Shown in pieces: positions 8,163-64,000 of a stretch of 64,000 bases of DNA. The stretch comes from Euglena gracilis. Taxonomy: Eukaryota. Below the pieces are notes generated by a model, which did no database searches, had not been told where the DNA came from, and worked only from the letters and a program-made list of their open reading frames with translations. The DNA lies in NCBI GenBank assembly GCA_039621445.1, contig CP154954.1, positions 5,619,919 to 5,683,918 on the forward strand, given 5' to 3'. Made by a program: the position numbers and the translations under genes. Positions within the stretch are counted from its first letter, which is position 1. Each line of letters opens with the position of its first letter.

Positions 8163-8225
8163 CAGGGGGGGTATAAACGCGAAACATTCACATAAAACAC
8201 ACGCATTCTCCAAAACGAAATCGTT

Positions 8226-8576
8226 TCAGAAAGTGTTTATGTTTATGTCTATGTGATTGCGCTTGTTCCACAGCTTCCAATCCTGCTGGATATATCCAAC
8301 AAAACTGGATGCTGGCTCCCAAGTGTCCTCCTCTGGCCCATACCCTTTCCAACGAACTTTCCAGTAGTGCACACCCCTGTCGACCTTGTGGTCTATTATC
8401 CTATCGACCACAAAATCGTCCGTTTCAGGTAATCTGGAACGGGGCTTGAAATATAGGCAGGGGATAGCTTTTCCGTCTGGGGGGCTTAGGTACGGTTTGA
8501 AGTCGTCCATATGGACGTCCTCAATCCCGTTGGGCAAGGCAACTTTATATCGCCCGCTACTACCTAACCTCTCCAA
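8226..8576 (-). pseudogene. Integrase C-terminus with chromodomain
   Basis: [10 protein letters not shown]...[22 protein letters not shown] is a chromodomain consensus. Separated from the IN core by an in-frame stop. Confidence 0.92.
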
Positions 8577-8579
8577 TAT

Positions 8580-12712: not shown

Positions 12713-13213
12713 TTATGTCAGAACCGTGGATTCCAGATTCGTATCCCCAGGTATCCGGAAAATTTTGCGGTTGGGGGGGGGTGAGTGGTGCTTGGGGATG
12801 AGGGGTAGGACAATGTCCAAAAAGCATCCCAAGTCACCACCGCACATGGGGGTGTTGTCAGCCGTCGTAATTTTGATCGGCTTCTTGGCTTTCACCAAGA
12901 GGGGGGTTGGTATCAACCCGAACCGAAAAAGTAGTGCAATGCGACAACCAGTGTCAATGATAATTTTGACTTTTGCACAAAAATTTTGGATTTTGATTTC
13001 CGCCTGGACTAAAAGTTCCATGGGGGGTAAGCAAAGCGAAGGGTCTGGCGAAAATACGTTTTCTTGCCAGCTTTCCCATGAACCCTTTCCTACTTGGCAC
13101 AACATTCCGAGCAGAAAGTTGGAGTGGGGGGTGGGGGACCCGAAAATTTTCCGGGTACCGACCAGAAAGGCAGATGGGCAGGGGGGGCAGGGTTGATCAG
13201 GTCCTACCTCCAT
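12713..13213 (-). pseudogene. Aspartic protease (copy B)
   Basis: IIDTG motif, with the same G9 frameshift as copy A. Confidence 0.85.
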
Positions 13214-13681
13214 CTGTTCATCAGCCCAGTGGTCCGTGCCCTCGGACCTCGGGCTCCCCTACTCCAGGTCCGAACCGGCCGAATAGCCGGCTATGGGCCT
13301 TTTAGAGGTATACACGGCTTTCAACGTGCGCACCGCCATGCGGGCCTCGTCGAAATCGGTATCCCTGGTCTCATCCCCCTCCCTGCCCGAAGCCGGGGTG
13401 TCATCCTCCAAACAAGATATCTTGAAACCGACTTTATGGCGGTTGGAGGAGTGACCCTTGTCACCGCGATTCATACCGCGATGACGTTGGCCAGGGCGGG
13501 GAGAACGAGAACGCGGACATTTGGATGAGTGGTGATCACGCGATCCACAAAGCGAACACCGAGATTTGTGTCGCGATTTTGGGAAACGGGGGGATCGGTT
13601 TCCCGATTTCCCGTCAAACCGCCGTGGTGACCGGGTATCCCGTCGACCATGACCGGTGTATCGGGGTTTTCCCGATGAGGA

Positions 13682-17185: not shown

Positions 17186-17191
17186 TGATGC

Positions 17192-22256: not shown

Positions 22257-22708
22257 AGGTCAGCAGTAGCTATACTGAGGGGTTTACAAAGAGGTGTTCG
22301 GTGACTGGGTGAGAGGTGAGTGGAAAATTTTCTTTTGCTTTTCACGCAATTCCGAATTTTCGCGTGAATTTGCGCACATGACAAAAAGAAAAGTTCACCA
22401 CCCCATTTGAGTCGAATTCTGGGTCCAACCACGCCTCCCATCAGTTATTTCATTTCCAGAGAATCGGTCAAATTTCACATGCACTGAAATTTGATGTTTG
22501 ATGGCAGTTGTTTTAAACTTGGACCAGTCTGGTTTGCAACAGGGGGACCTTGGGGTTTTCTGGATTTTTTTGCTTCAAACCAAAGGGTCCAGTGATTCTG
22601 TTTTTCCCATTCTCAACACTTGCCCATTAATATTTAGCACAATTGTTGAAGTTGTCTAAGTTAGTTCCAAATTCAACTTCTTCGCCAGTGGTTTTTTTCC
22701 AGAGAAAA

Positions 22709-41745: not shown

Positions 41746-42687
41746 TCAAAAGCCTTTTGAAAAAAGGGGGTAATGCGGTTCATTGGCTGTATTTATCGAC
41801 CTCCAGAGGTCGGCCCGACCTCCGGGATCGTCATAGCCAATCATCCGCCCGGGTGTCTTTGAGCAAAAGCTCATTGTGCAAGAATCTCCTTTTCTGTTTC
41901 TTTTCCCCCGTGGACGGGATTTTGAAGATATTTTGGATTTGCGTGCCATCCGGGCGGTGCCCCCCCCCCCCCCGTTGAGGCCACATGCACTCCACAGCTC
42001 CAAATCCCCCCACCTCGTCAATTGGTCAATTTCAGCCTTGGTTCCATCACCTGACTGAGTTGGGAGAATGCAAATGAGGCCTGAGTCTGACCCCAAGAAT
42101 TGCAGTTGTTGGCATAGCTGTTGGCAGTGCCATATGCTATGGAATCAGCGAGAACAGCGTTGCCGAATATCCGCCGCTGTTTGCCCTCCAGCTTTGCAAA
42201 GCTTTGCCATCGCTATAAAAGTTCAAGGTGTTTTGCTATTTCAATTTCCACATTTTGCAGTTTTCAACTTCCACTCTAATGTAACATGCTTACCATGTTT
42301 GACTCCACCCCTCGGGACTGGGAAGTTTTTAATGTGGGACGCCAACCCCGCCGCGACAGGAACCCTGGGATTGGCCTCTGGCGGTGTAGGATCTTTATTT
42401 CCTCCCTCTTCTTCAGGAGAGCGGACATGAACTCCTGCGTACGCCCCCTTAAACGTACTTGGGGTCACAATTCTTTGCACCCTCGCCCTCTCTCGGACCC
42501 CCCTTGCTCCGCACTTTGGCTCGATGGGACCTGTCTTTCCTCGCCGGCTATTGTTGTTTGTGTTTTTTGCTCCGCGTCTTCCCCTTACTGCTTTTCGCGC
42601 CGGCAGTTGGCTGTGACGTAGCCCTGCTACAAAGAAAAGTTTCGAACACAAGTTTTCAAGCAAGCAAAAGCAAAAACAAAGACAAGA

Positions 42688-45600
42688 ATGCAGACAGAGC
42701 ATCTGGATGTAAACCTCTTACTCGGTGAAGGGCAACCTTTCGAAGAAGGGTGGAGCAAACTGATGTTCAACCTGGAAGCAGCAAAAGAATTACGAGCACA
42801 ACCTGCGGACCAGATCGCCCTCTTGCTGCTGGCGGGGGCGCGGTTCACCGGACGAGGGTGGAGTACAGGGAAGGCCAGCAGAGCCCTGTACCAGCTTTCG
42901 GGGATCCCCCTGGTCCGGGGAAGCTTCCCCCCATACCGGGACATTTGGCTCATGGCGTTGGCGTTGATTTGGGGTGTCGATGTCCCCCAACTGGACCTTG
43001 AACCTGAGGCAGCCGCGGCGGCCTTTGCCATTGCCTCGCAGGCAGAACAACACGACACCGAAGAACCACAACAGGAGGAAGAAGGTGAAGAGGAAGAGAC
43101 AAAATTTTCCTGGGATCAACCTGAAGTGACGACACCCAAAGAGTTGACGGAGCTTTGGTCCAGGGCCCAGCGCAACGAGCACCGCATCGACGTTCGACCA
43201 CTCTTTGAAGTCCTGGCCCCTCTGGCGGGGATACCAGCGCGGGCGCCAGAGAATCAATTAATACCAGCCCACAGGAAGAAGCAGGACCAATTCTTGCGTA
43301 GCGTCTCGCAGAATGTCTTGCAGGTGGTACGACTGCTGGGGCACAACTGGGTGCCTCAGACTACGGAAGTGATACCTCGTGGACAAGTCAACTTGCAAAT
43401 ATTCCAATTGTTGGGTGAAGTTTATTACAAGATCCAGAGCGAGAGGAAGGAGTTGGCCGTGCCAGGAATCACGAGAACTTCGACGAGCCACACCGACTCC
43501 CTCTTCACGGAGGACGATGTCCGTCAGCACAGAATGGACAACAACATCAATCGCATAAGGGGAGGTACACACAATGGGCCCTCAGGGCCGACATTTCGTT
43601 TTCCAACAGGCCAGGCCAACAGACCGTGGAGAGGCAAAGGTGGACTATATGGAAGCTCCAGTTCAAGTCCCAGATTTGGGTATGGAAAGGGCAGAGGAGT
43701 GCCATTTCGCTCAATGCCGTGGAGAGCACCATGGAGAGGTGGAAGAGGCAAAGGTATCCCCCCCTCCTCTTGGGGTCAAGATGACCGGATCAGGAGCCAA
43801 GGAGGCTCAGTTGGCCCAAGATGGGCACAGTCTGGAGGACCCTCTGTTGGGGTTAGCCCCATTTCAAAGACTCAGAGCATGCATCGGCTGGTGGAAAACC
43901 CATGCCCCACCCAGAATCCTGAATCTCATTCTGCAAGGAGTGGAGCCAGATTTTCAAGGGGGGGCGTTACACACCTTAAAACAGCAAAAGTCCCCCCAGG
44001 AGGAAGCCCAGGCTCTCAGCATCATGGAGGAATACATCAAAGAAAAGGCTGCAAAGGAAGTTCAACAGCAAGGGACTATGTTTTTGGTACCTTGGTTTGT
44101 AATCGAGAAAGCAGAACCTGGGGGGGGGAAAAAAGTGAGACTGATCTCAGATTGCAGAAAACTAAACAATTTTCTTCATGCCCCCCACTTCAAATTGGAT
44201 CACTGGAAGGAAATTTTTCCACAGCTGGAAAAAGGAATGTGGGCCACAAAAATCGACTTGAAAAATGCTTATTTTCATTTGGAACTGTCAGCAGCCATAA
44301 AACCATTCATAAGGATGGAAATAGCAGGAAGAATATTTCAGATGGAAGGGGCCTGTTTTGGTCTAAGCACCCTCCCCTATCTTTGGATGCAGGTAATGCA
44401 AGTTTTTCTGAAAAAATGGCGAAAACAGGGAATTTTGGTTTTTGTTTATCTGGACGACATTCTTCTGGTGGCAAAATCAAAGGCTTTGGCAGAAAACCAA
44501 ACAAAAGTTCTGTTGCAGGATCTGAAAGACAGTGGTATGACCATCAACTTCAAAAAGTCACAGACCACCCCAACACAAGCAGTTCAATATCTGGGATTTT
44601 CAGTGGATCTAAAAAATGGTTGTTTGCTGGTGCCCTCAGCAAAACTAAAATGTATCAGAAAAGAGTTGGGAAAATTTGTCACCCAAGACAACATGTCCTG
44701 CAGGAAGGCAGCTGCAATTTTGGGGCAGCTGAGAAGTTTCCTCACAGCCCTCCCTTGCCTGAGGGCTTTCACAGACAAACTGGTACAATTCACAGACCAG
44801 CACACCAGGATGGGTTGGGACCAGAAAATCCCCATTCCCAAAGATGTCAAACAGCAGGTTCTAGAAGTAGGAAACTTATTAAGGTCCTGGGAGGGAAGAA
44901 AATTTCAAAACAAATGTCCTGTGAGAGAAATTCATTCAGACTCCTCCACTCAAGGGTGGGGGGCTCTGGACCTGACCACTGGTCAAAAAGTTCAAGAGTT
45001 CTGGAGATCAGAAATGGGCCTGCACATAAACATCAAGGAATTAAAAGCAGCTGTGGCAGCTACAAAAAGTTTAGCAAAGTCAGGGGAAAATGTCCTGCTA
45101 ACAGTAGACAATCAAGTAGCTTACAGCTACTTAAGAAAAGGGGGGGGAAGGAAATCCCCCTTCAACACAATTTTGAGACCCTTTTTGCAGTGGTGTCACA
45201 TAAACCAAGTAAATGTGATTCCAAACTGGGTCAAGTCAGAAGACATGCTAGCAGATGGCATTTCAAGGTGGGAAAAGGACAGGGGGGACTACACCCTAAA
45301 AAAGTCTGTGTTTCTGCACATCTTGAGAATTTTCTCCTCAAACAATTTTTTCCCCAAAGTGGACATGTTTGCCAGCCCAGGAAACGCACAACTGCCACAG
45401 TTTGTCAGCAGATGGCCTCATCACCAGGCCATAGCTGTGAATGCCCTGGAGTGCCCACTGGAAAAATTTGGGGAGGTTTATGCAAACCCCCCCTGGACAT
45501 TAATCTTACCATGGTTGGTGAGATTGAGGAACAACCCTCAGCTGACTTGTCTGATGGTGGTTCCATTCTGGGTTGGGAGTGTGTGGTGGCCCCTGTTAAC

Positions 45601-46896
45601 AAGAATGATCGTAAGAAAGAGCCCTGTGATTCAGATTCAACCTCAATGGGGGTTGTTCCAAAACTGCCTGGGGGAGATCATGCCCCCCACCAGATGGCCC
45701 CTCCTCTGTGTGCTGTTATCAGGGAGGGTTTACAAAGAAAACAAGTTCCACCTGAAAATATCACATTGTATTTGAACAGTCTGAAAAGTTTGAACAGGTA
45801 TGAAAAAGGATTTCAGGCTCTGTGGAGTTTGTGTGTGCAGGGAGGGGTGCAACCCCCTTTGATGACAGTGGATGAGACAGCCAGCTGGATTTTGAAACTG
45901 GCCCAGGACTCCCCTCATCAAGCAAGAAATGCTTACAGTGCTGTGTTGTTGATTCCTGGGTGGGAGGCTGTGAGGTTTTCCCCTCTCATCAAAAAAGCAA
46001 AACTTCTGTGGGCTTATGCAGGGGAAAAATATTCCACATTCTGGGATGCTAAGGATGTCATTCAGAAACTCCTTGCAACCCCCCTCAACTGGGATAGTAT
46101 CCAGGAGATTCGTGACAGAACCATTCTGTCCCTGCGCCTGTTTCACTTATGCAGGTCAATAGATTTGCAAAGACTACAAAGATCAAAGTCAATTATGGGA
46201 AACAATTTCTTCATCAAGCTGAGGCGTAAAGGCCAGCTGAGAGCCAGATTCGAACAGCTCATGACATTGCCAAAATCTCTGCAGACTGTATGTCCCACTG
46301 CTTTATTGTGCAGGTTGGTGTCTTTGACTGCCTCCCAGGGTGTGCAGGGGGGGGCCATGTTTTTATCATTAAATCCCCCATATGCACCACTGACTTCAAA
46401 CAGTTTGGGTAGGATCACAAAGAATCTGCTGACCCAGTTGGGGGTACCCACATCATTTTTTGGGGCTCACAGCACCAGGGGGGCAGCAGTAAAAATGTAC
46501 AAGTCTTTGGGTTTATCGTCAGAAATGGTGTGTGAGTTAGGGGGCTGGAAAAATACAGAGGCTTTTGCCAAACATTACCTCAGATTGGGTGCAGCAAAGG
46601 CTGCTGGAGATTCGTTGGCAAAACAGTTGGTTGGAAAAAGCTTTGGGGTGCACAGAGTCCCATCGAGCCAAAGTGCGGAGCAAGGGGGGTCCAGTAGTCC
46701 CGGGGAAACCCATGACCAGGGACGGAGGGACCTCACTTGCGAAGCACAAAGGCAAGATGGGCCCACCCCCCCCTCCCCAAAAAAGGTCCACCCAGGGGGG
46801 GGGTCCACCAGGTTCCGGTTTACCGATCCAGCCAACTGCCGACGACGACCAAGCAGTAAGGGGAAGACGCGGAGCAAAAAACACAAACAACAATAG
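42688..46896 (+). CDS. Gag-like + tyrosine recombinase fusion ORF (1402 aa)
   Basis: C-terminal YR motifs LCRSIDL (R), AHSTRGAA (HxxR), LGGW, FAKHY (Y). N-terminal gag-like region with an RGG-rich tract. Confidence 0.9.
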   Translation: MQTEHLDVNLLLGEGQPFEEGWSKLMFNLEAAKELRAQPADQIALLLLAGARFTGRGWSTGKASRALYQLSGIPLVRGSFPPYRDIWLMALALIWGVDVPQLDLEPEAAAAAFAIASQAEQHDTEEPQQEEEGEEEETKFSWDQPEVTTPKELTELWSRAQRNEHRIDVRPLFEVLAPLAGIPARAPENQLIPAHRKKQDQFLRSVSQNVLQVVRLLGHNWVPQTTEVIPRGQVNLQIFQLLGEVYYKIQSERKELAVPGITRTSTSHTDSLFTEDDVRQHRMDNNINRIRGGTHNGPSGPTFRFPTGQANRPWRGKGGLYGSSSSSPRFGYGKGRGVPFRSMPWRAPWRGGRGKGIPPSSWGQDDRIRSQGGSVGPRWAQSGGPSVGVSPISKTQSMHRLVENPCPTQNPESHSARSGARFSRGGVTHLKTAKVPPGGSPGSQHHGGIHQRKGCKGSSTARDYVFGTLVCNRESRTWGGEKSETDLRLQKTKQFSSCPPLQIGSLEGNFSTAGKRNVGHKNRLEKCLFSFGTVSSHKTIHKDGNSRKNISDGRGLFWSKHPPLSLDAGNASFSEKMAKTGNFGFCLSGRHSSGGKIKGFGRKPNKSSVAGSERQWYDHQLQKVTDHPNTSSSISGIFSGSKKWLFAGALSKTKMYQKRVGKICHPRQHVLQEGSCNFGAAEKFPHSPPLPEGFHRQTGTIHRPAHQDGLGPENPHSQRCQTAGSRSRKLIKVLGGKKISKQMSCERNSFRLLHSRVGGSGPDHWSKSSRVLEIRNGPAHKHQGIKSSCGSYKKFSKVRGKCPANSRQSSSLQLLKKRGGKEIPLQHNFETLFAVVSHKPSKCDSKLGQVRRHASRWHFKVGKGQGGLHPKKVCVSAHLENFLLKQFFPQSGHVCQPRKRTTATVCQQMASSPGHSCECPGVPTGKIWGGLCKPPLDINLTMVGEIEEQPSADLSDGGSILGWECVVAPVNKNDRKKEPCDSDSTSMGVVPKLPGGDHAPHQMAPPLCAVIREGLQRKQVPPENITLYLNSLKSLNRYEKGFQALWSLCVQGGVQPPLMTVDETASWILKLAQDSPHQARNAYSAVLLIPGWEAVRFSPLIKKAKLLWAYAGEKYSTFWDAKDVIQKLLATPLNWDSIQEIRDRTILSLRLFHLCRSIDLQRLQRSKSIMGNNFFIKLRRKGQLRARFEQLMTLPKSLQTVCPTALLCRLVSLTASQGVQGGAMFLSLNPPYAPLTSNSLGRITKNLLTQLGVPTSFFGAHSTRGAAVKMYKSLGLSSEMVCELGGWKNTEAFAKHYLRLGAAKAAGDSLAKQLVGKSFGVHRVPSSQSAEQGGSSSPGETHDQGRRDLTCEAQRQDGPTPPSPKKVHPGGGSTRFRFTDPANCRRRPSSKGKTRSKKHKQQ
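43574..45775 (+). CDS. RT - RNase H - N6-adenine MTase (733 aa), nested in the +1 frame
   Basis: IDLKNAYFH, FGLS..P, YLDDILL; HSDSSTQGWG, HINIKELKA, VDNQ, ADGISR; VDMFAS...YANPPW. Confidence 0.96.
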   Translation: MGPQGRHFVFQQARPTDRGEAKVDYMEAPVQVPDLGMERAEECHFAQCRGEHHGEVEEAKVSPPPLGVKMTGSGAKEAQLAQDGHSLEDPLLGLAPFQRLRACIGWWKTHAPPRILNLILQGVEPDFQGGALHTLKQQKSPQEEAQALSIMEEYIKEKAAKEVQQQGTMFLVPWFVIEKAEPGGGKKVRLISDCRKLNNFLHAPHFKLDHWKEIFPQLEKGMWATKIDLKNAYFHLELSAAIKPFIRMEIAGRIFQMEGACFGLSTLPYLWMQVMQVFLKKWRKQGILVFVYLDDILLVAKSKALAENQTKVLLQDLKDSGMTINFKKSQTTPTQAVQYLGFSVDLKNGCLLVPSAKLKCIRKELGKFVTQDNMSCRKAAAILGQLRSFLTALPCLRAFTDKLVQFTDQHTRMGWDQKIPIPKDVKQQVLEVGNLLRSWEGRKFQNKCPVREIHSDSSTQGWGALDLTTGQKVQEFWRSEMGLHINIKELKAAVAATKSLAKSGENVLLTVDNQVAYSYLRKGGGRKSPFNTILRPFLQWCHINQVNVIPNWVKSEDMLADGISRWEKDRGDYTLKKSVFLHILRIFSSNNFFPKVDMFASPGNAQLPQFVSRWPHHQAIAVNALECPLEKFGEVYANPPWTLILPWLVRLRNNPQLTCLMVVPFWVGSVWWPLLTRMIVRKSPVIQIQPQWGLFQNCLGEIMPPTRWPLLCVLLSGRVYKENKFHLKISHCI

Positions 46897-50443: not shown

Positions 50444-50630
50444 AGGTGGCCCTCCTTTGCATGATTTGCTCAGGAAAATATTGGAGGGGAAACAAATGCA
50501 GAATAAATCCATTCACGATTTCCTGGGGAGAAACCCCAGTTTAAAGCGTTATCAAAGTTCCTTTGGATTATTATGGGGTATTTTGGACAAAATGGGGATA
50601 CCCCCCCCCCCTGAAGCCACAACTGACCAA

Positions 50631-51265
50631 TGTTCACACCCGGCGCCCCCCCCCTGCGAGTGTCGGAATCGAGACCCCAGCCCCCCAGCCGGCTGCCTCG
50701 TCCCCTACACCCACCCTTGGGGCTGCCGTTGCCAGTGTTTTTCCGGGTGGTGGAGGGCTCAGGCCACCCCCCGTTTCGCCCACTGGTGTACCCCCCGACC
50801 AGAGGGGTGTGCGTAGGATCGAATTTGCTTTTCCCCTGAAAACTTTCACAAAGTCAAAATTGCGTTCCTTCAAAAATGTAGTGCCAAATTTCAGTCCCCA
50901 CGTAGCCATTTCACCCACCCTTTCTTAAGTATGCAAAAACACTGGAAATGGTCAGGGTGGGTGTTTTGGTGCAATGGATGGTGGTAAAAGGCAACAGAAA
51001 CGCGCACACACCGTGAAAGTGGGAAGAGGGACCTGAAATTGACAATTCTTGCAAACAATGTACCTTCTCTTGATTTCGATTCTCCAATTCGATTGTTGAT
51101 TGATGCCAATGTCAAAAACACCCACAAAGGTCTGCGGAAGCAAATTGTGTTAAATTTGAACCCCAAATTAGGCTTTTCCTATTGAATGCGCGGAATGAAA
51201 AATTCCGTGTTTTCAAAGCTTCCGCCTTACCATTTTTGACTGTCGGACGCCCCCGACAGTCGACA
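50631..51265 (-). repeat. 3' LTR of Gypsy family 2
   Basis: Direct repeat of 62008-62662, with adjacent CCCCCTCCCTT (minus-strand PPT). Confidence 0.95.
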
Positions 51266-52814
51266 CCCCCTCCCTTGCGACATTAGTCGGACCCTCGAAA
51301 AAAAAAAGAAAATTGAACAAAAAAAGCGAAGAAATCCAGAAAATCATTATGAAACTCGAACGAAAATGAGAATCCTTCACTGATGTTTTGAGAAAGGGAA
51401 TGATGAATCGCCTATGCCCCTCGCTTGTGTTACCTTGCCACAAAAACAAGGTACACGGCACCACTTAGCGGCTCCACAGAAATGTTCGGTAAACGTCCCC
51501 CCCAAAAATGTCCAAAAAATCCATGCCCCCCCCCCCCCCACAGGTTGGGGGCCTAAAAAAAAAATGACAAGAGAGAAAATTGCCACGAACTCTGTGAAAT
51601 TCATTCAAAATTAAACGAAAACTTGGCTAGCGCCCCCCCCCCCCATCGAAAACCCATCGTGGGGAGAGTTCTGACTTTGTGCCCCCGGAGGGATAATTTT
51701 GGAGGGAAAATTTGCCCCCCCCCCCGAACGTTCGGCTTGACCGCTTTGGGGAGAGTTCGGACAGCACCCCCCCCCCCGGGCGCTTGTGTCTTCCTTTCTC
51801 ATGGCATACAAAAAAACCTGGGTTCTTGGATTGGAAGGCATTCTCTTGCACAACTCACTCCTCGCGGACATCTGAAATGTTCTCAATCCTTCATAAATGA
51901 AATATGATACACCACGCGAAGACCTTGTGTATAGTTATTTTTTTGAATTTCACCGGAATACATCAACTGAAAAATAATGGGACATGGGAATGGGAATGGG
52001 CGCCCCCCCCCCAACCGAAACACGTTTGGAGGGAGCTCACCCAAAAATCGGAGAAAATTCAGCCCCCCCCCCCCCGCATCCACGGAGAAGGTGAGGCTTC
52101 TTCCCCTTTGCAACATTCACCAATGACTCGGAATCCGTGCACATCATCAAAACTCCATACACTTCGAGCCGCTCTCCTACAGGGGCTATGGCTCAACATT
52201 GAAAAAAAAATACAAATCCTTCGGTCCTCCTTTCCATTCACGGTATGGGAAGGTGAGGTGAGGTTGGGGTGAGGAATATAGGCAGCGGGGCTCGGGGCTC
52301 GGGTAGCGTGTGATGGGGTCGTTCATAAAGAGGAAAGCCCCAACGGGGCTGGGCTATGGACAAATTGGGTCGTGGTGTATTCGGTTGGTTGGGTAAAATC
52401 TCCTCGTCTCCTCGCTCCTTGCCTCGTCTCCTCGCTCCTTGCTTCGTCTCCTCGCTCCTTGCTCCTTGCTGTGGTGTGCGCTCGCAATTTTCCCTTGGGG
52501 CTCCCTTGGGCGTGCTTGGGGCCTCCAAGTCCTCAAAACCTGTGAGAGCAAAGCGAAAGAAAAGAGCAAGCACAAAATATGCAGGGAAAGAGAGAGAGAA
52601 AGAGAGATAATTCATCATATGCCCGAGAAATCAAAACATATGAGAATCGTGGATTCAATAACAAAACATGTGATGCACAAGCAATGCATATGTAGCACAC
52701 AAATAACTCGCCGAAACAGCACTTCGCCCGATTCAAAACAAGAGCCTCAAACATTTGGGCTCCCCCATCCAAAAAAAAAGGAAAATGAACCGAGCCTTCA
52801 ACTTTCGGCTCACT

Positions 52815-54290
52815 AGGGTTTCAAAGATTTTTTTCAATTCCGACATCAAATCGACCCCTAGATTTTTCTTCGAGCAACACCTTACCAACTCCTCACTAAA
52901 CCGGTGTATAAAATTCCTCTCCAAGTTTCCTCCCCATCATTATACCCAACCCATTTTGTGAGGAACTCCCAGGTTCCCCCCCTCTGGCGATGATTCAGAA
53001 TTTTTTTCTACACTCATCAGGCATTGCTTCTTCCTCTTTTTCGGTTCTTTTCGGTTCTTTTGAAAAAGAACAAAGGAACCCCCTCACCAAAAACTTCAGG
53101 CTCTTTGTCCTCCTTAAGGAAACTACGGTGAGTCTTAATTTCCATCCCGGGCTTAATTTCAATGACGTAACTCCTCTCCCCCTCCCCGGCTTTGATAATC
53201 CCAGGTCCAATCCATCTGGAATCCAATTTTTCGCCGGATCCTTCGGGTCTCCTATACGACACTTGGGTTCCTAATTTTAAGGGCACCAACTCCCTCCTCC
53301 CTTGGTTGACCCAACTCGCTTGAACCCAATGTTTGTGGTTGAGAACTTTTGCAACTTTCTCATCCATCTCCCTCATTCGGCGAACAAAACTTTGAGCGTC
53401 CTCACACTCCTTTGTTGGTTCATAGGGTATCCCCCCAATGGGTCCCCTTCCGAACAAAAATTCGTAAGGACTAAAACCACTCTCCCCCTTGGTGTCATGA
53501 ATACGATCCAAAAGTTGGGGAAGAGCTTCCACCCAATTCTATTTTTCCTCCACAAACAACTTTCGGAGGACTTCCAAAATTTGTTGACCGGCTCTTTCCA
53601 CCCTCCCATTCGCTTGGTGGTGGTAAGCTTGGGAAAATGCCTGTCTAATCCCCATGAGTGAACCCATGAGTGCAACCATGTGTTGACAAAATGGCTCCCT
53701 TGGTCACTTGAAATTATTGAGGGTACTCCAAAAGGTTTCCATTGGGGCTTAAGCATTTCCTTGGAAAACTTTGCACCCGTTAATCCCTTATCAAAACATG
53801 GTATGGCTACAATCCAACCGGAATGTCGGTCCACACAAACAGCCATTGTGTTGTATTCCCCCCCCTCGTACAACACCTTTGGCATTTTGAAAAGATCAAT
53901 TGCCACACTTACCATGGGTTCGGGTGGTATGGTTGTTGAATCAATGGGTCCTTTCAATGTCTCCCACCGCGAGCTTGCTTGACACGTTGTGCAATTTTTG
54001 CTACAACTGTCGGTGAAAACTTTTGCCTTCTTTTCATCGGCCCATGCATACCTCAAATTGACGTGTCTCCACACCTTTTCCCCACCTACATGTCCAAGGA
54101 ACTTGTGGTTTTCAAGGATGATCATTTCTTGAAAACCCAATGGAACGCACAACTCCTCTTCCACAAACATTTGGTTTTTGTGCACTTTCACCCCCTTTGG
54201 CCACTCACCATTTTCTTGCGTTGCTTGCCAAATTTCCCTCCAAGTGGGGCATTCGGTATACGAACCACCCAATCTCTCTCCCAAACTGAT
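52815..54290 (-). pseudogene. Integrase + chromodomain (family 2), frameshifted
   Basis: HKFLGHVG...CTTCQ, VAIDLF, VPSIISSDQGSHF, SRWIGPG. Chromodomain KILNHR..WEFLTKWVGYNDGEETW at ~52920-53010. Confidence 0.9.
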
Positions 54291-54616
54291 TTTGTTAGCT
54301 TAGGGGTTGCGCTTGGAGTTGGCACGGCCGCAACTTCTCCCGTTCCCCCGTTCGGTAACTCATCAGTCGGAAGTTTTTTGCTGGTCACCAAATTTTCCGC
54401 AGGGTCCACTCCATCCCAAAAGGTAACTCTCCTCTTACCCTTTTTCGAACCAAAACTCCTAGGCCCTTGTGAGTGAGTGTCTTCGGTGGTGTTTGTTCCT
54501 CTCGGACTTTCGACACTCTCGGGACCCCTCCCTGATGCATCATCCACAAAATTAGGTGCCACCTCTTTTCCACTGCACGTTACCGCCCCCCTTATCCACA
54601 AGTTACGAGCGTTAGT

Positions 54617-56426
54617 CTAAATTTTGACTTTGACCAACAAGCAATTTTTCTCATCTTCCCTCTCCTCTCTTATGAGCTCCTCCATTTCCCTCTTATCTTC
54701 GGCCGAACCATGTTTACTAATGTCCCTTAGAGCTTGCGAAGCAGGGTATGCCCACCGACTTAAAATGTCGGCAATGGTGTTTTCCTTCCCCGGAATATAC
54801 CCCACTGTCAAATCGTATTTTGAAAAAATTTGGTGCCATCGTGCCCTCCTCCCCACCGGTCCACTTGGGGTGTCGAGCCTCCAAACTTTGGTGATCGGTC
54901 AACACCAAAATGGGTTGGAGACCAATCCAACTTTCCCATTTTTGGAGTGCCAAAATTATGGCATATGTCTCCAATTCCCGGGGGGGGGGTCCATTTTCTT
55001 TGCCCCTCGGTGAGTTTTCGGGACATAAAAGCAACAGGCACCGTTTTCTTGTCCAAAATATCCTGGGGTGTGGGCGTACCGTTTCCTTCTTTGAGTTGTT
55101 TTAAAGTTGCTCCTACGGCATACCCACTCGCATCAACTCTCAAAGCAAAGGGTTTATCGGGGTCTACCCTTTGAAGAATTAATTCGGGAACACAACCGTT
55201 TCTTTAACTCCTCAAATGCTTCGCGTTCAACCTCCCCGAATTCAACCCATTTTTTTGCTCCCTTTCTTGCCTTCCTCCCTAGACACCTTCAACTTATCTT
55301 GCAAAGGTGCCGCAACTTGGGCATACATGTGTATGTAGGTGTTGTAATAATTTGTGAAGCCGAGGAAAGCCCTTAAGGCCGTTATGGTGGTTGGAACCTC
55401 CCATTTTTCAATGGCACGTAATTTGCCGGGGGCCGGCCGACGCATGCCATGCCCCAAAATCTGGCCACACAATTCCACTTCTTTGATGAATAATTCCGCT
55501 TTTTTTGGGTCCACTACAAAAATTTCCTCGGCGAGTAAATCCAACACCCTACACAAATCCCTTTTGTGTGCCTCGAGGAGATCCTCCTCCTCCACGAAGG
55601 TGGTCCCTACCAAAATGTCATCAATGTATGGGGTAGCAATATCCCTTACGGGTGCTAAACGGTCATCCATCATTTGTTGAAATTGTTGTGAGGCATTGGT
55701 TAACCCCATTACATTTACCCTCCATTGGTAAAGACTCTTTGGTGTGAAGGAGGAAGTTATAGGCCTACTATCCGGGTGAAGCGGCTGTTGGTGAAAGGCT
55801 TGTTTTAAATCCAAAATGGAGAACATTTGGTTTGCGCCATGCTTCACCAGGATGTCTTCGATTTTCGGAAGAGGGTAGTTGCATCTACGGGATTGACTGT
55901 TGGGTCCCCTCATGTCAAAAACCCCCCTCCGAGGAAAATCGGCTGACTTTTTGGGCTCGGGGAAAGTTTGTTGGAGCCATTCTGATTTTTTTGTTGTGGC
56001 TGGCTCGATGAATTGGACATCGATCCAATCTTGAGTGATTTTTTCCAAAGCTTCTTTTCGTTCCCCGAGCATGAAAAATGGTTTTTGTCGGGTGGACCGC
56101 GCTCCTTCTTGCAAAGGTGTGAATACATAACCATATGGTCCTCTTACGGGTGGGTCGGGTTGTACCTTATACCGAAATACGGTTCCACCATACCTTCCAA
56201 AAATGTCCTCTCTTAGCTCCCTTATTCTCTCTTCCTCTTTAGATTCCGTTTCATTATTCCCCTCCCCCTCCCGTGCAATAATCATTTTGCGAATTGGTAG
56301 GGGGTTTTCATTTGCAATCTCCAAATTCTTTCCCAAAATTTTGAGCGAGTGTTCGTCCAAGGCTTGTCCCCTTTGATCAAAACCCTCCATAGGAAGTTGG
56401 AAACCAAACTTTTCCAAATTTGTCAC
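54617..56426 (-). pseudogene. Reverse transcriptase + RNase H (family 2), frameshifted
   Basis: LDLKQAFHQ, VMGLTNAS, YIDDILV; VDASGYAVGA, AFMSRKL, ELETYAII, LTDHQSL, ADILSR. Confidence 0.95.
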
Positions 56427-56504
56427 CCCCCCCCCTTTGGGTTAGTGTGTTAGGGACTTTTCCTTGTCGTTTTCTCCCATGATCTCTCACACCGAACAAA
56501 AATG

Positions 56505-56900
56505 TCAACTTGGGTTCCTCCACTGCCAAAGCACGATGATGTTGAAAAATTCCAATTTTTGTTTGCACAAGCCATGGGTATGACAAAATTGCGTCCAATT
56601 TGATATTGACATCATAAATTCCACATCGTACTCAAAATCTGTGGGTGGGGTATTATCGTTCACATCCCCTTGCAATTTCATGATCACCTTAGTGCACCTC
56701 CACCCACCACTCAAGGCTTGACCGTCAGCGGTTTCAAACCTCAAGGGGTGTTCGGCCGAATACTCACCAACCCTTGCCTTATGAGGTTAACCTCCGCACC
56801 GGTGTCTACCAAAACGTCCATGTTTTGTTCTTCCCCGTTTCCCAAAACAACCCTTGTCCGAATCAAAAGTTGTTGGTCCTTGTAAAATTTCTCAATACCT
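56505..56900 (-). pseudogene. Aspartic protease (family 2)
   Basis: DVLVDTGAEVNLIRQG ... DAILSYPWL. Confidence 0.9.
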
Positions 56901-56989
56901 GTGGTTGGGTATCTCTTTTTAACCATCCCTGATTTCAAATGTACCACCTTTGGTGAATTGGGGTTGCTAGTGTTGGCGGGGGGCTTATT

Positions 56990-57395
56990 ACCCTCTATCC
57001 ACAAGGCCCAAACTCCCCACCTCACACCCCCCATTGGTTTCCCATCGACCTCAAAAAGCTTGGTTCCGGGTGGAAAGTACAACTTTTTTGTTGCCTTCCG
57101 AACAAGTTCTCTCACCCAACCTCTGTTCCAATCGGGTAAAATGCAAATGGCATCACAAGGGTCTTTTGCTATTTCTTTGCCACCTTTGGCCACAATGACC
57201 AGGGAGGGTTCAACCAAACCGTGCCTCCCCCTCCCCATGGTACCGCCAAAGCATTTTCCTTCTCGGTCAAATATGACGTGCACTGATAATTTTGGGTAGA
57301 AGGAAAACAATCCAGCTCGGCCCTCCTTTGAAAATTCTCCTCAATCATTTGCACAAATGAATTTCGAACGGCATAGTCCTCACGTTTGAAAGAAA
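56990..57395 (-). pseudogene. N6-adenine DNA methyltransferase-like domain (family 2), frameshifted
   Basis: EDYAVR..ELDCF..ENALAVPW..VWLNPPWSLWPKVAKK | IAKDPCDAICILPDW..WV..L; the second half is in frame with the protease. Confidence 0.85.
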
Positions 57396-57419
57396 ATTTC
57401 TCCTCCTTAAAATCAAGGG

Positions 57420-58030
57420 TCGAAAGAAGGTACTCGGTACCAACTTCTCAGGTACTCTCCATTTTTGTTAAGTGCTCACCCTCATTCCATTTCCTCCCAA
57501 TTGTTCTTTGTGAACCAACCCACCCCCCTCAGTCACAGTCAAATGGGGGCAGGTTTTCCCATCACAAAGTTTGTCCTTCAAACTCAACAAATTTTGACTC
57601 CCCCAAATACGAGTGGGTTTCTGACATCACCAGTCGGAAAATTGACAATAATCCACGTCAATGAAATTCAAATTTTGCACACAATGCCTTTTTGGCAAAA
57701 GTCCCGTTCGGGGATTTTCAATCCACCATAATTTGGGCTGAAAATACTCCACAATTTCCAAAGTTTTTGTCACAAGTTGGTCTGCCCATTCCAAATTTCT
57801 TTCTCCCACCGTCTTAGCACGGCTATACTCCGTGCAAGGCACACTTGCCGTTATGACTTGAAAATATCCATGGGGGTATTTTTGATAATTCCACTCCAGA
57901 ATATCCGTGACGTGGGTTGGGTGAAATTTTGGGTTCACATCCAAGGATACCACCTGGTACCCGTTTTCCTCCAAACACCTCCCAACAGACCCTTTTCCCG
58001 AAAACAAATCCAACGCCTTGGGAACTTTCC
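57420..58030 (-). pseudogene. C5-cytosine DNA methyltransferase domain (family 2), with a stop and frameshift near the C-terminus
   Basis: Motif I ALDLFSGKGS, II VVSLD, III TDIL, IV ASVPCTEYS (catalytic PC), VI WIENP, then VDYCQF..*CQKPTRIW (motif VIII-like) and KWRVPEKL. Confidence 0.9.
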
Positions 58031-61000
58031 AACTTCCCACACCTTTGATGGATGGTCTTTCGCTCAAACAACCATAATAATTGTTGAACCTGGGCCGTGC
58101 ACTCTCCTGGCTTGCACACCTGGTCCACGGTTTGCCCTTCCTCGACACAGGCTGCCATTGGCCACTCAAGGCCTCAAAGCTCAAGGCCACTTGTCTTCTC
58201 GAGTTGGCTGTCGAGCATGAACTCATTGAAAGCATTGAATTGGCACCGTTGCTCGTCTTCGATATTGCACACTCTTCATTGCCTGATTTGGAACCTGAGG
58301 TGAAGGGATTGGAATCTCCACCACGGTAATATCCTCTATGTGAAGATGTGGTTGGGTTATGCAAAATACTTTAGGGGTGTTCGATGCCCGAGGATGTAAA
58401 CCCCTCAAAAACATGACCCCGGCGTCCCTGATGACGAATAGGGCGGGCAACCGTTGGTGTTGTGTTATTGTTATTGCCCTTCCCCCCTTTGGCACCGAAA
58501 TTCTGGTCAAAACCTTTGACCTTCCCTCTTCCCTTACCACCCTTCCCCTTGTACCCCTGTTGGTTACCCCCATACCATTGGGAGTTATTTGCCCCATGTC
58601 CCTGGGAATTATTCCCCCCTTTCCATTGGCTGCCATTACCATACGGCTGAAAATTGTTTCTGTTCCACGGGGCTTGTCTAGCAACATCACCCCCACCACC
58701 GGTCTTTGCACATTGGGAGGGTTCTCCACCGTTGAAAGCCTTGAAGAATTGCTTGATGGCTGCACATTTGAAGATGAAACCGCAACAGATTGATCAGGTT
58801 TTGCTGTTTCGCTGATTTGTGATTTGCTTCTGGCTGGGGGAGGTGTGGTTGCCCTACCAGAGGTTGACCCTGGTGAACTCTTCCGACTCCCTGATTGCCT
58901 CCCCCCTCGATTTTCAGCACCCACCGACCTTGAACGCCTAAACCCTTGATATCCTGGGGATGAAACAGAACTTAGTAAGGCGTCATGCTTGTTTCTGAGT
59001 GTCAACTTCGTTTTCACGAGGTTGAAAATATCCTCGGTGGTCAAAATTGGTTCAATTTCCTGAAACAAAACGTTTGAATCGTCAAACTCTTTGCCATGAA
59101 AACTCTTGACTTTTTCAGGCAGAAATGTCAGGGAAAATGATTTCAAATTCTTCCTCGTAAATTTCCGACACTTTTGTGGGTCTTTTCCCAACTATTTTCC
59201 CCAGGCTTTCTGCAACCGTTTCTGAATTCCTGTTCCCTGGCATCTTTAGGCGTAAAGTTGGCTGATAATTCAGCCTCCTTTCCTCCTCATCTGAAACCCA
59301 TTTTAGGATGAATGGGGGAAGTTTCCGCACCAAAAGTCGTTTTTCTTCCCCCTCCCTGGCATCCTTAACCTTGCACTTGGCCATCTTGAAATTTGCCTGA
59401 GATTCAAGCCAGTGCTCAAGGGTAACTTTGCCTTGATTAAAAAGACTCACCTGTTGCCAAGTTTTCCTTGCCCCAGATTCCTGATTCTTCGAAAATGTCA
59501 TTTGCAGGTGACCCCACCCGGCATTAAAATTGATCCCCCCTTCCTTGATATGGAGCTTCAGAATTTGTTTTGCTCGTTTCGTCAAGACAATCCTCCAACA
59601 GAGCAACTTTCAAATCTTCACTCACTTCCCCCCCTGCAGAATTCAGTTTCCGTGAAAATGCTTGCCAATCCTCAGAAAATTGCTGCCAATCTTGAGATTT
59701 CCCTGTGAAATCTGGGATGTTGATCTGGGCGGCTGCCGACCATCAAGTAGTTCACAGGGGGGTGCATTTGCAATAAATCAGGTCAGTGGCAATTGTGCCT
59801 TTGGGGGGGCACCCCAGCGACCCCCAGTCATAAGTGTTGGTAACCCAGCGGTGCAGCATCTGTTGAGAATTTTGACTGCACCATGGCATCATTGGGGTCA
59901 CCCCCTTAACCCCGAAAATCCCAGATGATTGAGCCGGTGACACCCCCTTAATGCCAAAATTACCAGAATTCGGCTGATTTACTGTCTTGGGCTGGGCCAC
60001 TTCAGGTGCCTTGGGATCAATTTGCTGTGTTTTTTCGACTGAAATTTCCTGAACCCTCCCCTCCATGAAATCCAAACGAGTCTGCAAAGTTTGACACAGT
60101 TCTTGCAAACCCTCCCGTTGACTCTTTTCAGGCTGAAAATCTGTCTGCATGTTCATCAAAACTGTGAAAAATTGCTGTTTCACTCGATTTTCAATGTCAG
60201 TTTGCAATTTTTCAAAATGTTGTTCCTTTTGGGTTTGCCTCAGCTTTTCATCCATCATTTTCACCATCATAATTTCCATTTTTTTTTCTGACCTGGTCTG
60301 CCGTTTCCCTACGAACTTCCAGTTGAATTGTTGCTTCTGATTTTCCCAGCATTTCAACCACCTTATCCCAAGGCACCTGCTGGGTGCCCAGAAATTTCTT
60401 AATTGCTGTGATCCTGCCCCCCAGAGCTTTGCTCTCGTTTCTAGTTTCTTCAAATTGCTGCTGAATTTAGTGGGTTAAGGTCCCAAAACCTGACTTTGAT
60501 TCCTCCCCCACCATTTTCAGCCCAGCAGCGATTTCAGCAAATTTTCTGTCCACACCAGAGCATAGCTCACGATTTGCTTGTCGGATTGCCAAAATTTCCT
60601 TCTGAAAATCTGACTTAATTTGCTCAACAGAATGCAAACAAATTCCAACTTGCTCGACCAACCCACCTGGTGCAAACAATTTGTTTTGGACATCGTTTCC
60701 ATGGCTCTCAAGTTGTGCCAGCTCACCACCCAGAAAATCCCGTAATTGCTTCTCAAAATCATGAAATTTCCCTTCGATCTGCCTTTGAACTTCAATCCCC
60801 AAAAGTTGTTTGTGGCAGTTTGCAATGTTTTCCACAGCACTCCCCCCCCCAGCTGGAGGAAAGCATAATTCCTCCCCAGGTTGTGATTGAGAATCGGCTG
60901 GAAATTTTTGAGAAGAATTTGGCTGAAAAAAGCGCTCGAGCACAGAGAGGACTTTTGCATTTCATCCATGAAAATATGGAGAAATATGCTGCTGAAATGT

Positions 61001-62008
61001 GCAGCCAGTTTGAGCACGAAAAGCAAAAAAGTCAGGAGCAAATTCAGCAATCAGTCAGCCAATTTATTTTACGATGCCAGGAAGGGGGTTTGCACCAGAA
61101 AACTGAAACTCGCAGAAAAATCTGGCAGATTTTGCTCCAAACCCTGATTTCTGGGTGGTACCCAACCTGCAGCAATCAAAAAATCCTCCATTTCTCTCAA
61201 CCGATCTTGGTTTTGCGCACCCTCCCCCTCCGTTTCACAGTCACTTCCATACGACGGGGGGGATTCTGCCCACTGAACTAGATGGTTTTCCCCTTCTGGC
61301 TGTGAATTTTCCCTCTGTGCAGTTATCATCATTACGGGGAAACAGTTTACAGGGCGATCTCCTGATTTTTCAGACAAAAACTCTGAATTATCACCTGAGG
61401 CAACCTGTGAATGTGTAAAACCTGTGATTGTAAATGGCAGGGAGCTGAGAATTGATTGATTTGAGATTGAAGATTGATTGGCTGACCCTGCAGAAAAACC
61501 TGAATGATTCCATTCGCCCAGCTGACTTCGACCCACTGATTGAAACAACCCCTCAGATTCCACAGATTCTGCAGTTCTGACATTTTAAATTTCGGGGGCT
61601 GCTCTCCGAAAAATCTGGTGGCTGACCTGAAAAATTCTGTGATTCCACATTCACAGACTCAGCAAACTTTTTGGCCTCTGAAAACTCTGTCACCATGTCA
61701 AACTTTTCAGCAAGATTTGTGCTGGCTGTGCCAGCAAATTCGTCCGTGTTTTCTGGGCTGAAGAAAGTTTTGTCGACAGGGCTGGCAAAACATTCTCTGC
61801 TTGTCATGTTCAGGGAATTCGAAAACTTTTCACTGACGAAGTCATTGAATCCACTTCCGCCAACCATGTTCAGGGGTTCTGGTTTGTCATCATTCGAATC
61901 CAAAAATTCTTCACTGACAGAGTCAGTGAAGCAACCTCTGCGTACCATGTTCAGGGGTTCTGAAAACTCTTCACTGACAGGGTCAGTGAAGCCACCTCTG
62001 CTAACCAT
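58030..62008 (-). pseudogene. gag: Gag region of family 2 (multiple frameshifts; coiled-coil and capsid-like segments)
   Basis: Chain of minus-strand ORF fragments (61553-62086, 61069-61563, 60467-60943, 59752-60453, 59115-59606, 58223-59191) between the PBS and the MTases. The call is mainly positional. Confidence 0.7.
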
Positions 62009-62662
62009 GTTCACACCCGGGCGCCCCCCCTGCGAGTGTCGGACCCGAGACCCCAGCCCCCCGGCCGGCTGCCTCGTCCCTGACACCCACCCTTAGGGCT
62101 GCCGTTCCCTGGCCCGGGGCCAGTGTTTTTCCGGGTTGTGGAGGGCTCAGGCCACCCCCCGTTTCGCCCACTGGTGTACCCCCCGACCAGAGGGGTGTGC
62201 GTAGGATTGAATTTGCTTTTTCCATGAAAACTTGCACAAAGTCAAAATTCCGTTCCTCGAAAATGTAGTCCCAAATTTCAGTCCCCACGTGGCCATTTCA
62301 CCCACCCTTTCTTAAGTATGCAAAAACACTGGAAATGGTCAGGGTGGGTGTTTTGGTGCAATGGATGGTGGTAAAAGGCAACAGAAACACGCACACACCG
62401 TGAAAGTGGGAAGAGGGACCTGAAATTGACAATTCTTGCAAACAATGTACCTTCTCTTGATTTCGATTCTCCAATTCGATTGTTGATTGATGCCAATGTC
62501 AAAAACACCCACAAAGGTCTGCGGAAGCAAATTGTGTTAAATTTGAACCCCAAATTAGGCTTTTCCTATTGAGTGCGCGTTCTGAGCGGAATGAAAAATT
62601 CCGTGTTTTCAAAAGCTTCCGCCTTACCATTTTTGACTGTCGGACGCCCCCGACAGTCGACA
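62008..62662 (-). repeat. 5' LTR of Gypsy family 2
   Basis: TGTTCACACC...GTCGACA. Differs from the 3' LTR by scattered substitutions and two ~10-13 bp indels. Confidence 0.95.
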
Positions 62663-64000
62663 CCAAGTGGCTGACGCTTTAGTACAGTTATTTCGGTTTT
62701 CCAAGGCCCAGACACGTAACTATGCTTTTAATTCCATGGTTTGGTGGTTTGAGATTCCACAACCTGTTGGCCCCATACAAGAGGCTTTGGAATCAAAATC
62801 TGGAAAAATATGAAAACATGGTGCTTTTTGGGACCCCCTCCCCATCCTCCTGGGGATGGCCCAAGCCCCCTTCCCCTCTGATATATGCACGTTGCGCACA
62901 CAGCTGGTTTTTTTGCTCCAGAATTCTCTGTTTATGTTGATCTTCTGATCTGGAGAGAATCAAACGAACAACCAGTGTGTTTGGCAGGGCGCCCTACATC
63001 AAAATTCAGCGTAAAGGCCAGAAATTCCGTAAATGGGAGAGGGTTGTTTCACTTCCAAAGTGCCCACAGATAAGTCCCTTTCATTTAATGATGGCTTGCG
63101 TGGCTGCAACCCGATTTAACGTAAAGCCTGGGGGTCCCCTTCTGGTTTCACTAAAACCCCCATTCAAAGCCATGAGTGCTGACACAATTGCTTCAATAAC
63201 TAAACATTTTTTATCCAACATGGGGTACCCCCCCAGCTGTGGGGGGCCCGCTCCACCAGAGGGGCAGGAGTTGGTTTACTCAAAAAATTGGGCCTTTCTG
63301 CCCAAGAAATTTGTGAAATTGGCCAGTGGAGAGGTGTGGAGGCTTTTACAGCCCATTATCAACGACTTGGTGCCCAGGGTGCCTTGGAGAATGCCCAGGC
63401 CGCCCTAATTTCAGTGCACAATCAGGCCTCGCAAGGGCAAAGTGCGGAGCCCGAGGTGTCTCGTACTCCCTCGAGGATAACCGACAAGGGAGGAAGGGAC
63501 CCCGAGGGCGAAGCACAAAGATCTTGTGAGCCCGAACGGAGTCGCTGCTCAGTGCCGCCTCGCCGGAGCTGGCTGATGATGTGGCTCCGACGTGGTGACG
63601 TGACTTCTTGCCCCTGGGGGGGTTTCCCCCCTCTGCCCCCCATTTTCTGACCGAGTGCTTTTGAAGACAAATACTTTCTTACAGGTGGGGGGGGCTAGCC
63701 CAACGCAGCAAACAGTCCACACAACACCGCCGGCGAGCAAGACATGGCCTCACAGGGCCTTTGTGCTTCGCCCTCGGTGTCCCTTCCTCCCTTGTCGGGT
63801 TTCCTCGAGGGAGCACGAGGAAGGTTGGGACGGAAGAAAGCCCCAGGGGATGTGAAGCGCGTGTGGATGGGATCCTTTCCTAACCAGTGGGGTATCAGCA
63901 ATTTGGGTTTCCAATTCTGCTGCCCAAATGTAGGAGAGTGAAGGAATGCATTTGGAGGGGGGGGAGAGTGGCAGAAGTGTATTTGGCATATCCCCATGGA

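Follow-up and report, generated by a model that had tools for sequence, protein, structure and literature searches.

The stretch of DNA analysed here, hereafter the window, comprises 64,000 nucleotides of Euglena gracilis contig CP154954.1, and its minus strand carries a two-LTR Ty3/Gypsy chromovirus at positions 50631–62662 (coordinates are those of the window). Along the element strand a 5' LTR of 656 nt (62007–62662, minus strand) and a 3' LTR of 635 nt (50631–51265, minus strand) form a direct repeat, both with TG...CA ends and 96.9% identical to each other (633 of 653 aligned bases, with 10 transitions and 10 transversions). A PBS-like sequence starting with TGG, read from the sequence, abuts the 5' LTR (61989–62006, minus strand), and we take it to resemble the 3' end of the initiator tRNA-Met; Rfam and tRNA scans of the window gave no match. 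Three tandem leader units of 60–81 nt, each consisting of the LTR end plus the PBS-like sequence, occupy 61815–62022 on the same strand (repeat family D3), and a polypurine tract, likewise read from the sequence, abuts the 3' LTR on its upstream side (51266–51277, minus strand). The flanking letters show a target-site duplication, CCAA or ACCAA, at 50626–50630 with its partner at 62662/62663–62666, and contigs from all four sequencing runs searched (X1, X2, X15 and X16) join position 50625 straight to 62662 with 5 shared letters. These contigs represent the empty site, indicating a true insertion with a 4–5 bp target duplication. The LTR ends, target-site duplication, PBS and polypurine tract of a Ty3/Gypsy element are thus all present, and an earlier note made from the sequence alone, which had described a TSD-flanked two-LTR chromovirus at these positions, was right on this point. 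The PBS-like 19 nt are also present after the 3' LTR, and a tandem or recombinant element was considered on that ground, but a simple insertion is more likely given the empty-site contigs.

The pol region extends from 58016 to 52817 on the minus strand and is now split into 8 frame pieces, which by three-frame translation and tblastn with the intact relative P0125 are collinear with residues 165–1911 of that protein. The order of domains is C5-cytosine methyltransferase (C5-MTase), Dam/DIRS-type methyltransferase, protease, reverse transcriptase (RT), RNase H, integrase and chromodomain, and from the protease to the integrase both the Pfam matches and the collinearity with P0125 give the order expected of Ty3/Gypsy elements. 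The compact C5-MTase lies at 57438–58016 (Pfam PF00145, E 1.2e-6, with the expected motifs) and is 65% identical to residues 165–357 of P0125, and the Dam-type domain follows in two frames at 56990–57405 (PF05869, E 1.3e-11, and alignment with the Dam segments of 25 relatives). The aspartic protease (56430–56870) was recognized from its translation and its collinearity with the protease region of P0125, with the DTGA motif at 56806–56795, and the C-terminal half of the Dam domain reads in frame with it in the translation, as had been noted before. Further downstream are the RT (55454–55955, RVT_1, E 1.2e-17), which is 83% identical to that of the relative P0127 over 297 columns, the RNase H (54800–55235, RT_RNaseH, E 1.9e-6, collinear with P0125) and the integrase with zinc-binding domain and core (53640–54146, rve E 3.6e-9 and Integrase_H2C2 E 5.6e-4), all on the minus strand, as are the preceding domains and the chromodomain at the integrase C-terminus (52817–53004, Chromo E 4.2e-4). 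The chromodomain reaches 20.6 bits against a cut-off of 25.1, a shortfall due to a frame break that interrupts it, and the pol tail (53673–52921) is 65% identical to residues 1625–1874 of P0125, where the latter has its Chromo match (35.4 bits), so that the chromodomain claimed in the earlier note is probably present.

Upstream of pol, several broken frames at about 61584–58223 (minus strand) constitute a gag-like 5' region, assigned by ORFs and position; it has no Pfam match and no CCHC knuckle, and of the order gag then C5-MTase that had been proposed the second part is well founded while gag is placed by position only. The window copy is dead, in agreement with its earlier description as decayed: in addition to the 8 frame pieces of pol, the C5-MTase has two in-frame stops (57629–57627 and 57470–57468), and the reading frame shifts twice within the methyltransferase cassette, at the junction of the two domains near 57438 and again inside the Dam domain near 57170–57210.

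The C5-MTase of the window shows the motifs DLFSGKG, VPC, ENP, DYCQF and KPTRIW and scores 28.6 bits with the Pfam DNA_methylase model against a cut-off of 22. Among 22 aligned C5-MTase rows the catalytic Cys, the ENP, the Y and C of DYC, the K.T..W motif and two more Cys are invariant, and one His is nearly so. The domain has a total length of 201–220 aa with the target-recognition domain almost absent, and the conserved residues suggest that a small Cys/His cluster may replace this large domain. The structure model of the C5-MTase of the relative P0003 has a mean pLDDT of 88.2, and among solved structures it best matches DNMT3B and DNMT3A (E 3e-9, TM 0.6), followed by DNMT1 and M.HaeIII, while a PDB profile search with the C5-MTase gave weak matches only, with DNMT1 at E 0.003. 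The compact C5-MTase that had been read from the letters is accordingly borne out by motifs, by a Pfam score above cut-off and by the confident model of the P0003 domain, whose nearest solved structures are DNMT3A and DNMT3B. When compared with viral models, the top match is the putative C5-MTase of Tetraselmis virus 1 (TetV-1; E 1.1e-18, TM 0.80/0.74), an enzyme of 218 aa that is 36% identical over its full length to the modelled C5-MTase.

The second methyltransferase carries the Dam-like motifs ELDCF, NAL, WLNPPW and ILPDW, and NPPW marks N6-adenine rather than N4-cytosine enzymes. Its Pfam score (44.9 bits against a cut-off of 28.1) and the WLNPPW motif agree with the proposal of a Dam/DIRS-like amino-methyltransferase directly after the C5-MTase. 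At least 90% of the 25 Dam segments keep D.F, W.NPP, P.W, G..F and WG, and the window copy keeps all of them. The Dam half of the second structure model has low confidence (pLDDT about 40–75), and a PDB sequence search with the Dam part matched no solved structure. The profile and structure checks that had been suggested thus turned out positive for both methyltransferases with Pfam and for the fold of the C5-MTase, whereas the Dam domain gave a low-confidence model and no PDB match.

Relatives were gathered with the read-through C5-MTase of the window (P0001), giving 160 of similar length and 78 longer ones. All five intact relatives that were scanned, of 1,763–1,911 aa, hold PF05869, PF00145, RVT_1, RNase H, rve and Chromo in one ORF, with PF05869 above cut-off in all five and PF00145 in four of them, so that C5-MTase, Dam and the rest of pol are read together in a single frame. 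P0125, P0126 and P0127 share the domain order of the window, and in the alignment with these three the linker EEKF.FKREDY is kept between the methyltransferases, followed by an unbroken run into the protease. A repeat search found no repeats bounding the cassette, and contigs from other copies cross both of its junctions, for example one of 854 nt over 56991–57845. Both methyltransferase domains are integral parts of pol and not a later insertion, because the order is the same within the single ORFs of intact relatives; the observation that no TSD or TIR sets the cassette apart holds in the window and is matched by the same order in uninterrupted metagenomic ORFs.

The family is very abundant: two DNA runs from one organism gave 9,413 and 8,623 contigs that match the element at a likeness of at least 90%, with all 30 bins filled. 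Near 57437 all covering contigs differ in length from the window copy, and near 57162 a part of them do, indicating that the two breaks in the cassette frame are peculiar to the window copy. In a set of six intact polyproteins of the window type the mean pairwise identity, which is an identity measure and not dN/dS, is 0.61 for the C5-MTase, 0.49 for Dam and 0.50 for the protease, and 0.63, 0.78 and 0.80 for the integrase, RT and RNase H respectively (15 pairs each, except 10 pairs for the RNase H and 6 for the integrase). Both methyltransferase domains are therefore conserved about as well as the protease and the integrase, and the ORFs containing them run uninterrupted over about 1,800 codons, which indicates that they are probably under purifying selection. 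The observed/expected ratio of CpG is 0.59 in the element and 0.93–0.98 in a young neighbouring LTR family; in the window as a whole GC is about 50%, and the ratio goes down to 0.45–0.67 in older repeats.

HMMs built from these domains were used to classify 198 relatives. Both methyltransferases are held by 37, where the C5-MTase precedes Dam in 22, Dam precedes the C5-MTase in 14 and the protease lies between them in one; 47 combine the C5-MTase with other pol domains and no Dam, and in the remaining 114, mostly short ORFs, only the C5-MTase was seen. An RT tree of 30 rows (28 relatives, the window and one outgroup) places the window RT in a clade with SH-aLRT support 99 together with four polyproteins of the order C5-MTase, Dam, protease, P0127 being the most identical. 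This clade is nested in one of 16 rows (support 98) made up of elements with an N-terminal C5-MTase, nine of which have no Dam, and P0156 and P0177 have a divergent Dam (28% identity between P0156 and P0125). Forms with the order protease, Dam, C5-MTase and RT constitute a separate RT clade with support 100, and in other relatives and the metagenome loci L001 and L004 the C5-MTase is found elsewhere in pol, between RNase H and integrase or after Dam and protease. The tree and the varied layouts together indicate that the C5-MTase module has changed position several times and that gains or losses of Dam occurred repeatedly.

The C5-MTase also has a wide range of relatives outside retroelements. 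A profile search against 1.84 billion cluster representatives gave 6,462 proteins with E at or below 0.001, 3,246 at or below 1e-10 and 841 at or below 1e-30, and many of the best 150 matches are free-standing proteins of about 200–240 aa. Among 38 metagenome loci, all at most 54% identical to the query, retroelement domains accompany the C5-MTase in five (L001–L004 and L014), and it stands alone in the other 33. Several of the C5-MTase contigs are low in GC (26–38%) and gene-dense, and of those with a free-standing gene L011 encodes an NCLDV-type capsid N-terminal domain and L010 a primase-helicase. Together with the TetV-1 match these contigs tie the C5-MTase module to viruses of protists, and the likeness of the model to the giant-virus enzyme points to a possible viral source. 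In the C5-MTase tree the retroelement-linked and free-standing labels are clustered (12 changes versus 35 in shuffles); a reading of the donor or the direction of transfer from this tree was discarded, since ORF fragments of decayed elements, when they lie on short contigs, also receive the free-standing label. A search of the ESM Atlas with the P0125 cassette gave best scores of 0.82, below the level of a lead. Of 10 sequence clusters looked up, a single one bears an organism name, that of a partial Genlisea aurea protein, possibly a contaminant.

Some contigs carry joints inside the element. In run X15 one contig passes straight from 62397 to 58292 and leaves out gag, another passes from 58118 to 52537 and leaves out pol, and a similar pol-skipping joint is found in run X16; both runs are only guessed to be RNA runs, and the joints rest on single contigs. 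On the element strand both joints are bounded by GT...AG, the AG being preceded by a pyrimidine tract, they are absent among the listed contigs of two DNA runs, and the read depth in X15 and X16 is higher over gag than over pol. A gag-skipping splice would place a pol-frame ATG at 58235 near the 5' end. We offer, as a tentative and somewhat doubtful reading, that a large environmental radiation of chromoviruses may have captured a giant-virus-type C5-MTase and moved it to at least four settings in pol (before the protease, between protease or Dam and RT, between RNase H and integrase, and with or without Dam), and that in the lineage of the window the methyltransferase pair might form the N-terminus of a Pol translated from a subgenomic mRNA that lacks gag through splicing, in the manner of foamy viruses, while the second splice would give a gag-only mRNA. 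Should Pol be made in this way, the methyltransferases could reach the replication complex without Gag and work on the cDNA there.

Our preferred reading, to which we give a probability of roughly 60%, is that the element is a decayed copy of a high-copy chromovirus of the EpiLTR kind, a name given to LTR elements with DAM, DNMT and chromodomain in Euglena gracilis and Cymbomonas (Fernandez-Moreno et al., bioRxiv 10.64898/2026.05.21.726589, 22 May 2026, cited here from its accessible part), in which a giant-virus-type C5-MTase and a DIRS-type Dam domain have been inherited and selected within pol, with the Pol-borne enzymes methylating cDNA or the fresh insertion and the chromodomain steering integration. 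Pol would carry both methyltransferases into the particle or the pre-integration complex, where they would methylate the new cDNA or the fresh insertion. The C5-MTase would provide 5mC, making the new copy resemble the heavily CG-methylated DNA of the host, the Dam-like domain would lay down or seed 6mA, which marks permissive chromatin, and the chromodomain would steer integration into chromatin so marked. That the element's own cDNA is methylated is what we infer, and the 47 relatives that pair the C5-MTase with other pol domains and no Dam count against such a model.

The main rival holds that the conserved domains do not methylate the DNA of the element: Dam could be a non-catalytic domain with a nucleic-acid-binding or structural role, as may hold in DIRS, and the C5-MTase could have RNA as its substrate, either genomic RNA or the tRNA primer, or else work in trans on host DNA. 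According to the accessible part of the EpiLTR preprint, eukaryotic DAM domains gave no 6mA in dam- E. coli and lack a part of the bacterial enzyme, CD-1/TR-1 (10.64898/2026.05.21.726589). The same window contains a second, young LTR family with Dam only, where the Dam-like domain is open and intact but has HPPP instead of NPPW and scores 21.2 bits, under the Pfam cut-off, which argues that catalysis by Dam may not always be needed. RNA methylation has been raised for the DNMT of SymbioLINE (de Mendoza et al. 2018, PMC5890265, accessible text), the C5-MTase is nearly without a target-recognition domain at its 201–220 aa, and many relatives have no Dam. Methylation of element DNA is favoured, on the other hand, by the fact that at least 90% of the 25 Dam segments retain NPPW together with the rest of the pocket residues, by the invariant catalytic Cys and ENP of the C5-MTase, and by its closest folds, which are the DNA enzymes DNMT3, DNMT1 and M.HaeIII and not the tRNA methyltransferase DNMT2; DAM-LTR insertions are moreover reported as 6mA-enriched in three hosts (10.64898/2026.05.21.726589, accessible part). 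The non-methylating alternative is rather unlikely in our estimation.

We regard as improbable that the element restrains itself by methylating new insertions, which would silence them immediately and limit both copy number and harm to the host. This would agree with 5mC being usually a silencing mark, with the low or undetectable expression of LTR elements in E. gracilis given in the accessible part of the preprint (10.64898/2026.05.21.726589) and with the CpG ratio of the element, which is lower than that of the young neighbouring family, but loss of CpG is expected for any old copy in a CG-methylated genome, the very high copy number is contrary to strict self-silencing, and a C5-MTase paired with a Dam-type domain, for permissive 6mA, fits it poorly. 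Finally, the cassette might stem from the nesting of one insertion in another, from chimerism or from faulty assembly at this one locus. For E. gracilis, nested insertions and assembly artefacts are flagged as pitfalls in the accessible part of the preprint (10.64898/2026.05.21.726589), and the window copy is broken exactly at the junction between C5-MTase and Dam; the same order is nevertheless found in uninterrupted ORFs on independent metagenomic contigs, and with both junctions spanned in other copies and no bounding repeats we consider such an origin extremely improbable.

Among known systems the EpiLTRs are the closest. The earlier note knew of no Gypsy element with both classes of methyltransferase in one polyprotein, a claim of novelty that does not stand, as this kind of element is already in print as EpiLTR (10.64898/2026.05.21.726589, accessible part); a literature search on EpiLTR and on the pairing of PF05869 with PF00145 found no description beside this preprint. 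The assignment of the window element is by domain content (DAM, C5 DNMT and chromodomain, here as there in one Ty3/Gypsy-like element) and not by tree placement. In so far as the preprint is accessible, EpiLTR genomes also hold DAM-DIRS and DAM-only LTR elements, as the window does, the EpiLTR DNMTs form a monophyletic group that is sister to DNMT4, and CG methylation is near default in E. gracilis. The Dam-bearing neighbours of the element, the GC content and the CpG depletion of older repeats in the window agree with this account of E. gracilis. The DNMT of the Cymbomonas tetramitiformis EpiLTR is located at the 3' end of pol, from which the Euglena gracilis layout differs (same source), and in the window element the DNMT comes first in pol.

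DNMTs have also been described from LINE and DIRS retrotransposons of Symbiodinium and from a Gypsy element of Klebsormidium, all of them without a Dam domain in the accessible text (de Mendoza et al. 2018, PMC5890265). The precedent of Symbiodinium and charophyte retrotransposons given in the earlier note is hence real, with the specification that the Symbiodinium elements are LINE and DIRS and the charophyte one is Gypsy (PMC5890265, accessible text). According to the same source retrotransposon DNMTs can methylate CG de novo. KnitGypsy-Dnmt3 of Klebsormidium nitens resembles the window element in being of Gypsy type and in having, within pol, a C5 DNMT that evolves under purifying selection, but its DNMT is a host-derived Dnmt3 and is not accompanied by Dam, in contrast to the compact giant-virus-like DNMT of 200 aa found here (PMC5890265, accessible text). 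SymbioLINE-Dnmt and SymbioDIRS-Dnmt3 share a conserved C5 DNMT, abundance and a host with near-global CG methylation, whereas their backbones are of the endonuclease or tyrosine recombinase type and not LTR/integrase, and neither is described with both methyltransferase classes in the part of that paper that is accessible (PMC5890265).

DIRS retrotransposons have the same PF05869-type domain with the D.F, NPPW and P.W blocks, but with a tyrosine recombinase and split or inverted repeats they are unlike the LTR element of the window. A DIRS element with a Dam-like domain is located in the same window at 42622–46896, and its Dam is only about 30% identical to that of the chromovirus, indicating no recent local exchange between the two. 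The C5-MTases of TetV-1 and of the virus-like contigs agree with that of the window in size and fold and differ in being free-standing viral genes, while here the enzyme is fused into a retrotransposon polyprotein. A viral source of retrotransposon DNMTs is only suggested, and for other elements, in the accessible text of de Mendoza et al. 2018 (PMC5890265).

If the predicted activities hold, the element would carry writers for both eukaryotic DNA methylation marks together with a chromatin reader, and such a parasite could set its own epigenetic state. Beside the EpiLTRs already in print, the window offers a fully delimited example, with LTRs, PBS, polypurine tract, target duplication and empty site, and presents the cassette as the N-terminus of Pol, and the metagenomic relatives show the design to be widespread, conserved and modular. 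The value of the locus lies in this added detail and in testable leads, namely splicing and the shuffling of modules, rather than in a first discovery.

Two joints on the minus strand of the decayed chromovirus (50631–62662) were seen in contigs of runs that are guessed to be RNA, one of which (62397>58292) bypasses gag, a gene named by its position, and the other (58118>52537) pol. Read on the element strand, both have GT...AG ends together with a pyrimidine tract, and neither is present among the joints listed for two DNA runs. If the guess on the nature of the runs is right, the gag-skipping and pol-skipping joints may represent subgenomic pol and gag mRNAs of the element, respectively. The leader contains three tandem units (61815–62022), each repeating the LTR end and a sequence resembling a primer binding site (PBS), and a similar PBS-like stretch of 19 nt is located at 50612–50630, in the flank just beyond the 3' LTR.

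The window contains several other retroelements. A DIRS-type element on the plus strand (42622–46896) encodes a reverse transcriptase (RT), a Dam-like methyltransferase domain with the motif ANPPW and a tyrosine-recombinase-like C-terminus (HSTRG), and its Dam domain shows about 30% identity to that of the chromovirus. Immediately adjoining the 5' LTR of the chromovirus is a partial tyrosine-recombinase-like ORF (HSTRG...HY, 62941–63650, plus strand), which probably represents the remains of a DIRS element, with the chromovirus inserted either within them or alongside. The minus-strand fragment at 47127–48035 matches the Dam C-terminus, protease (PR) and linker of P0125, an intact metagenomic polyprotein with the domain order of the chromovirus, at 41–45% identity and represents a truncated remnant of an element related to the chromovirus. 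A 469-residue ORF on the minus strand (20850–22259) looks by eye like a non-LTR (LINE-type) reverse transcriptase.

A second LTR family is present on the minus strand at 1–17191 in two young-looking copies, with 227-residue ORFs that are 99% identical between the copies, a CpG observed/expected ratio of 0.93–0.98 and an open gag ORF of 1,169 residues with a CCHC knuckle. Its pol has the order PR-Dam-RT, where the Dam-like domain preceding RT carries HPPP in place of NPPW and scores 21.2 bits with the Pfam Dam model, which is below the cut-off. The family lacks a C5-MTase.

The compact C5-MTase of the chromovirus is found elsewhere in pol in the metagenomic relatives P0144, P0152, P0173, P0182 and P0190 and in the metagenome loci L001 and L004, the orders being PR-Dam-C5MT-RT, Dam-PR-C5MT-RT, RNase H-C5MT-IN, or with the C5-MTase after RNase H. 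Free-standing homologues are found at loci L005, L006, L010, L011, L012 and L016, on low-GC and gene-dense contigs. An NCLDV-type capsid N-terminal domain is encoded at L011 and a primase-helicase at L010, so that contigs of this kind look like viruses of protists.
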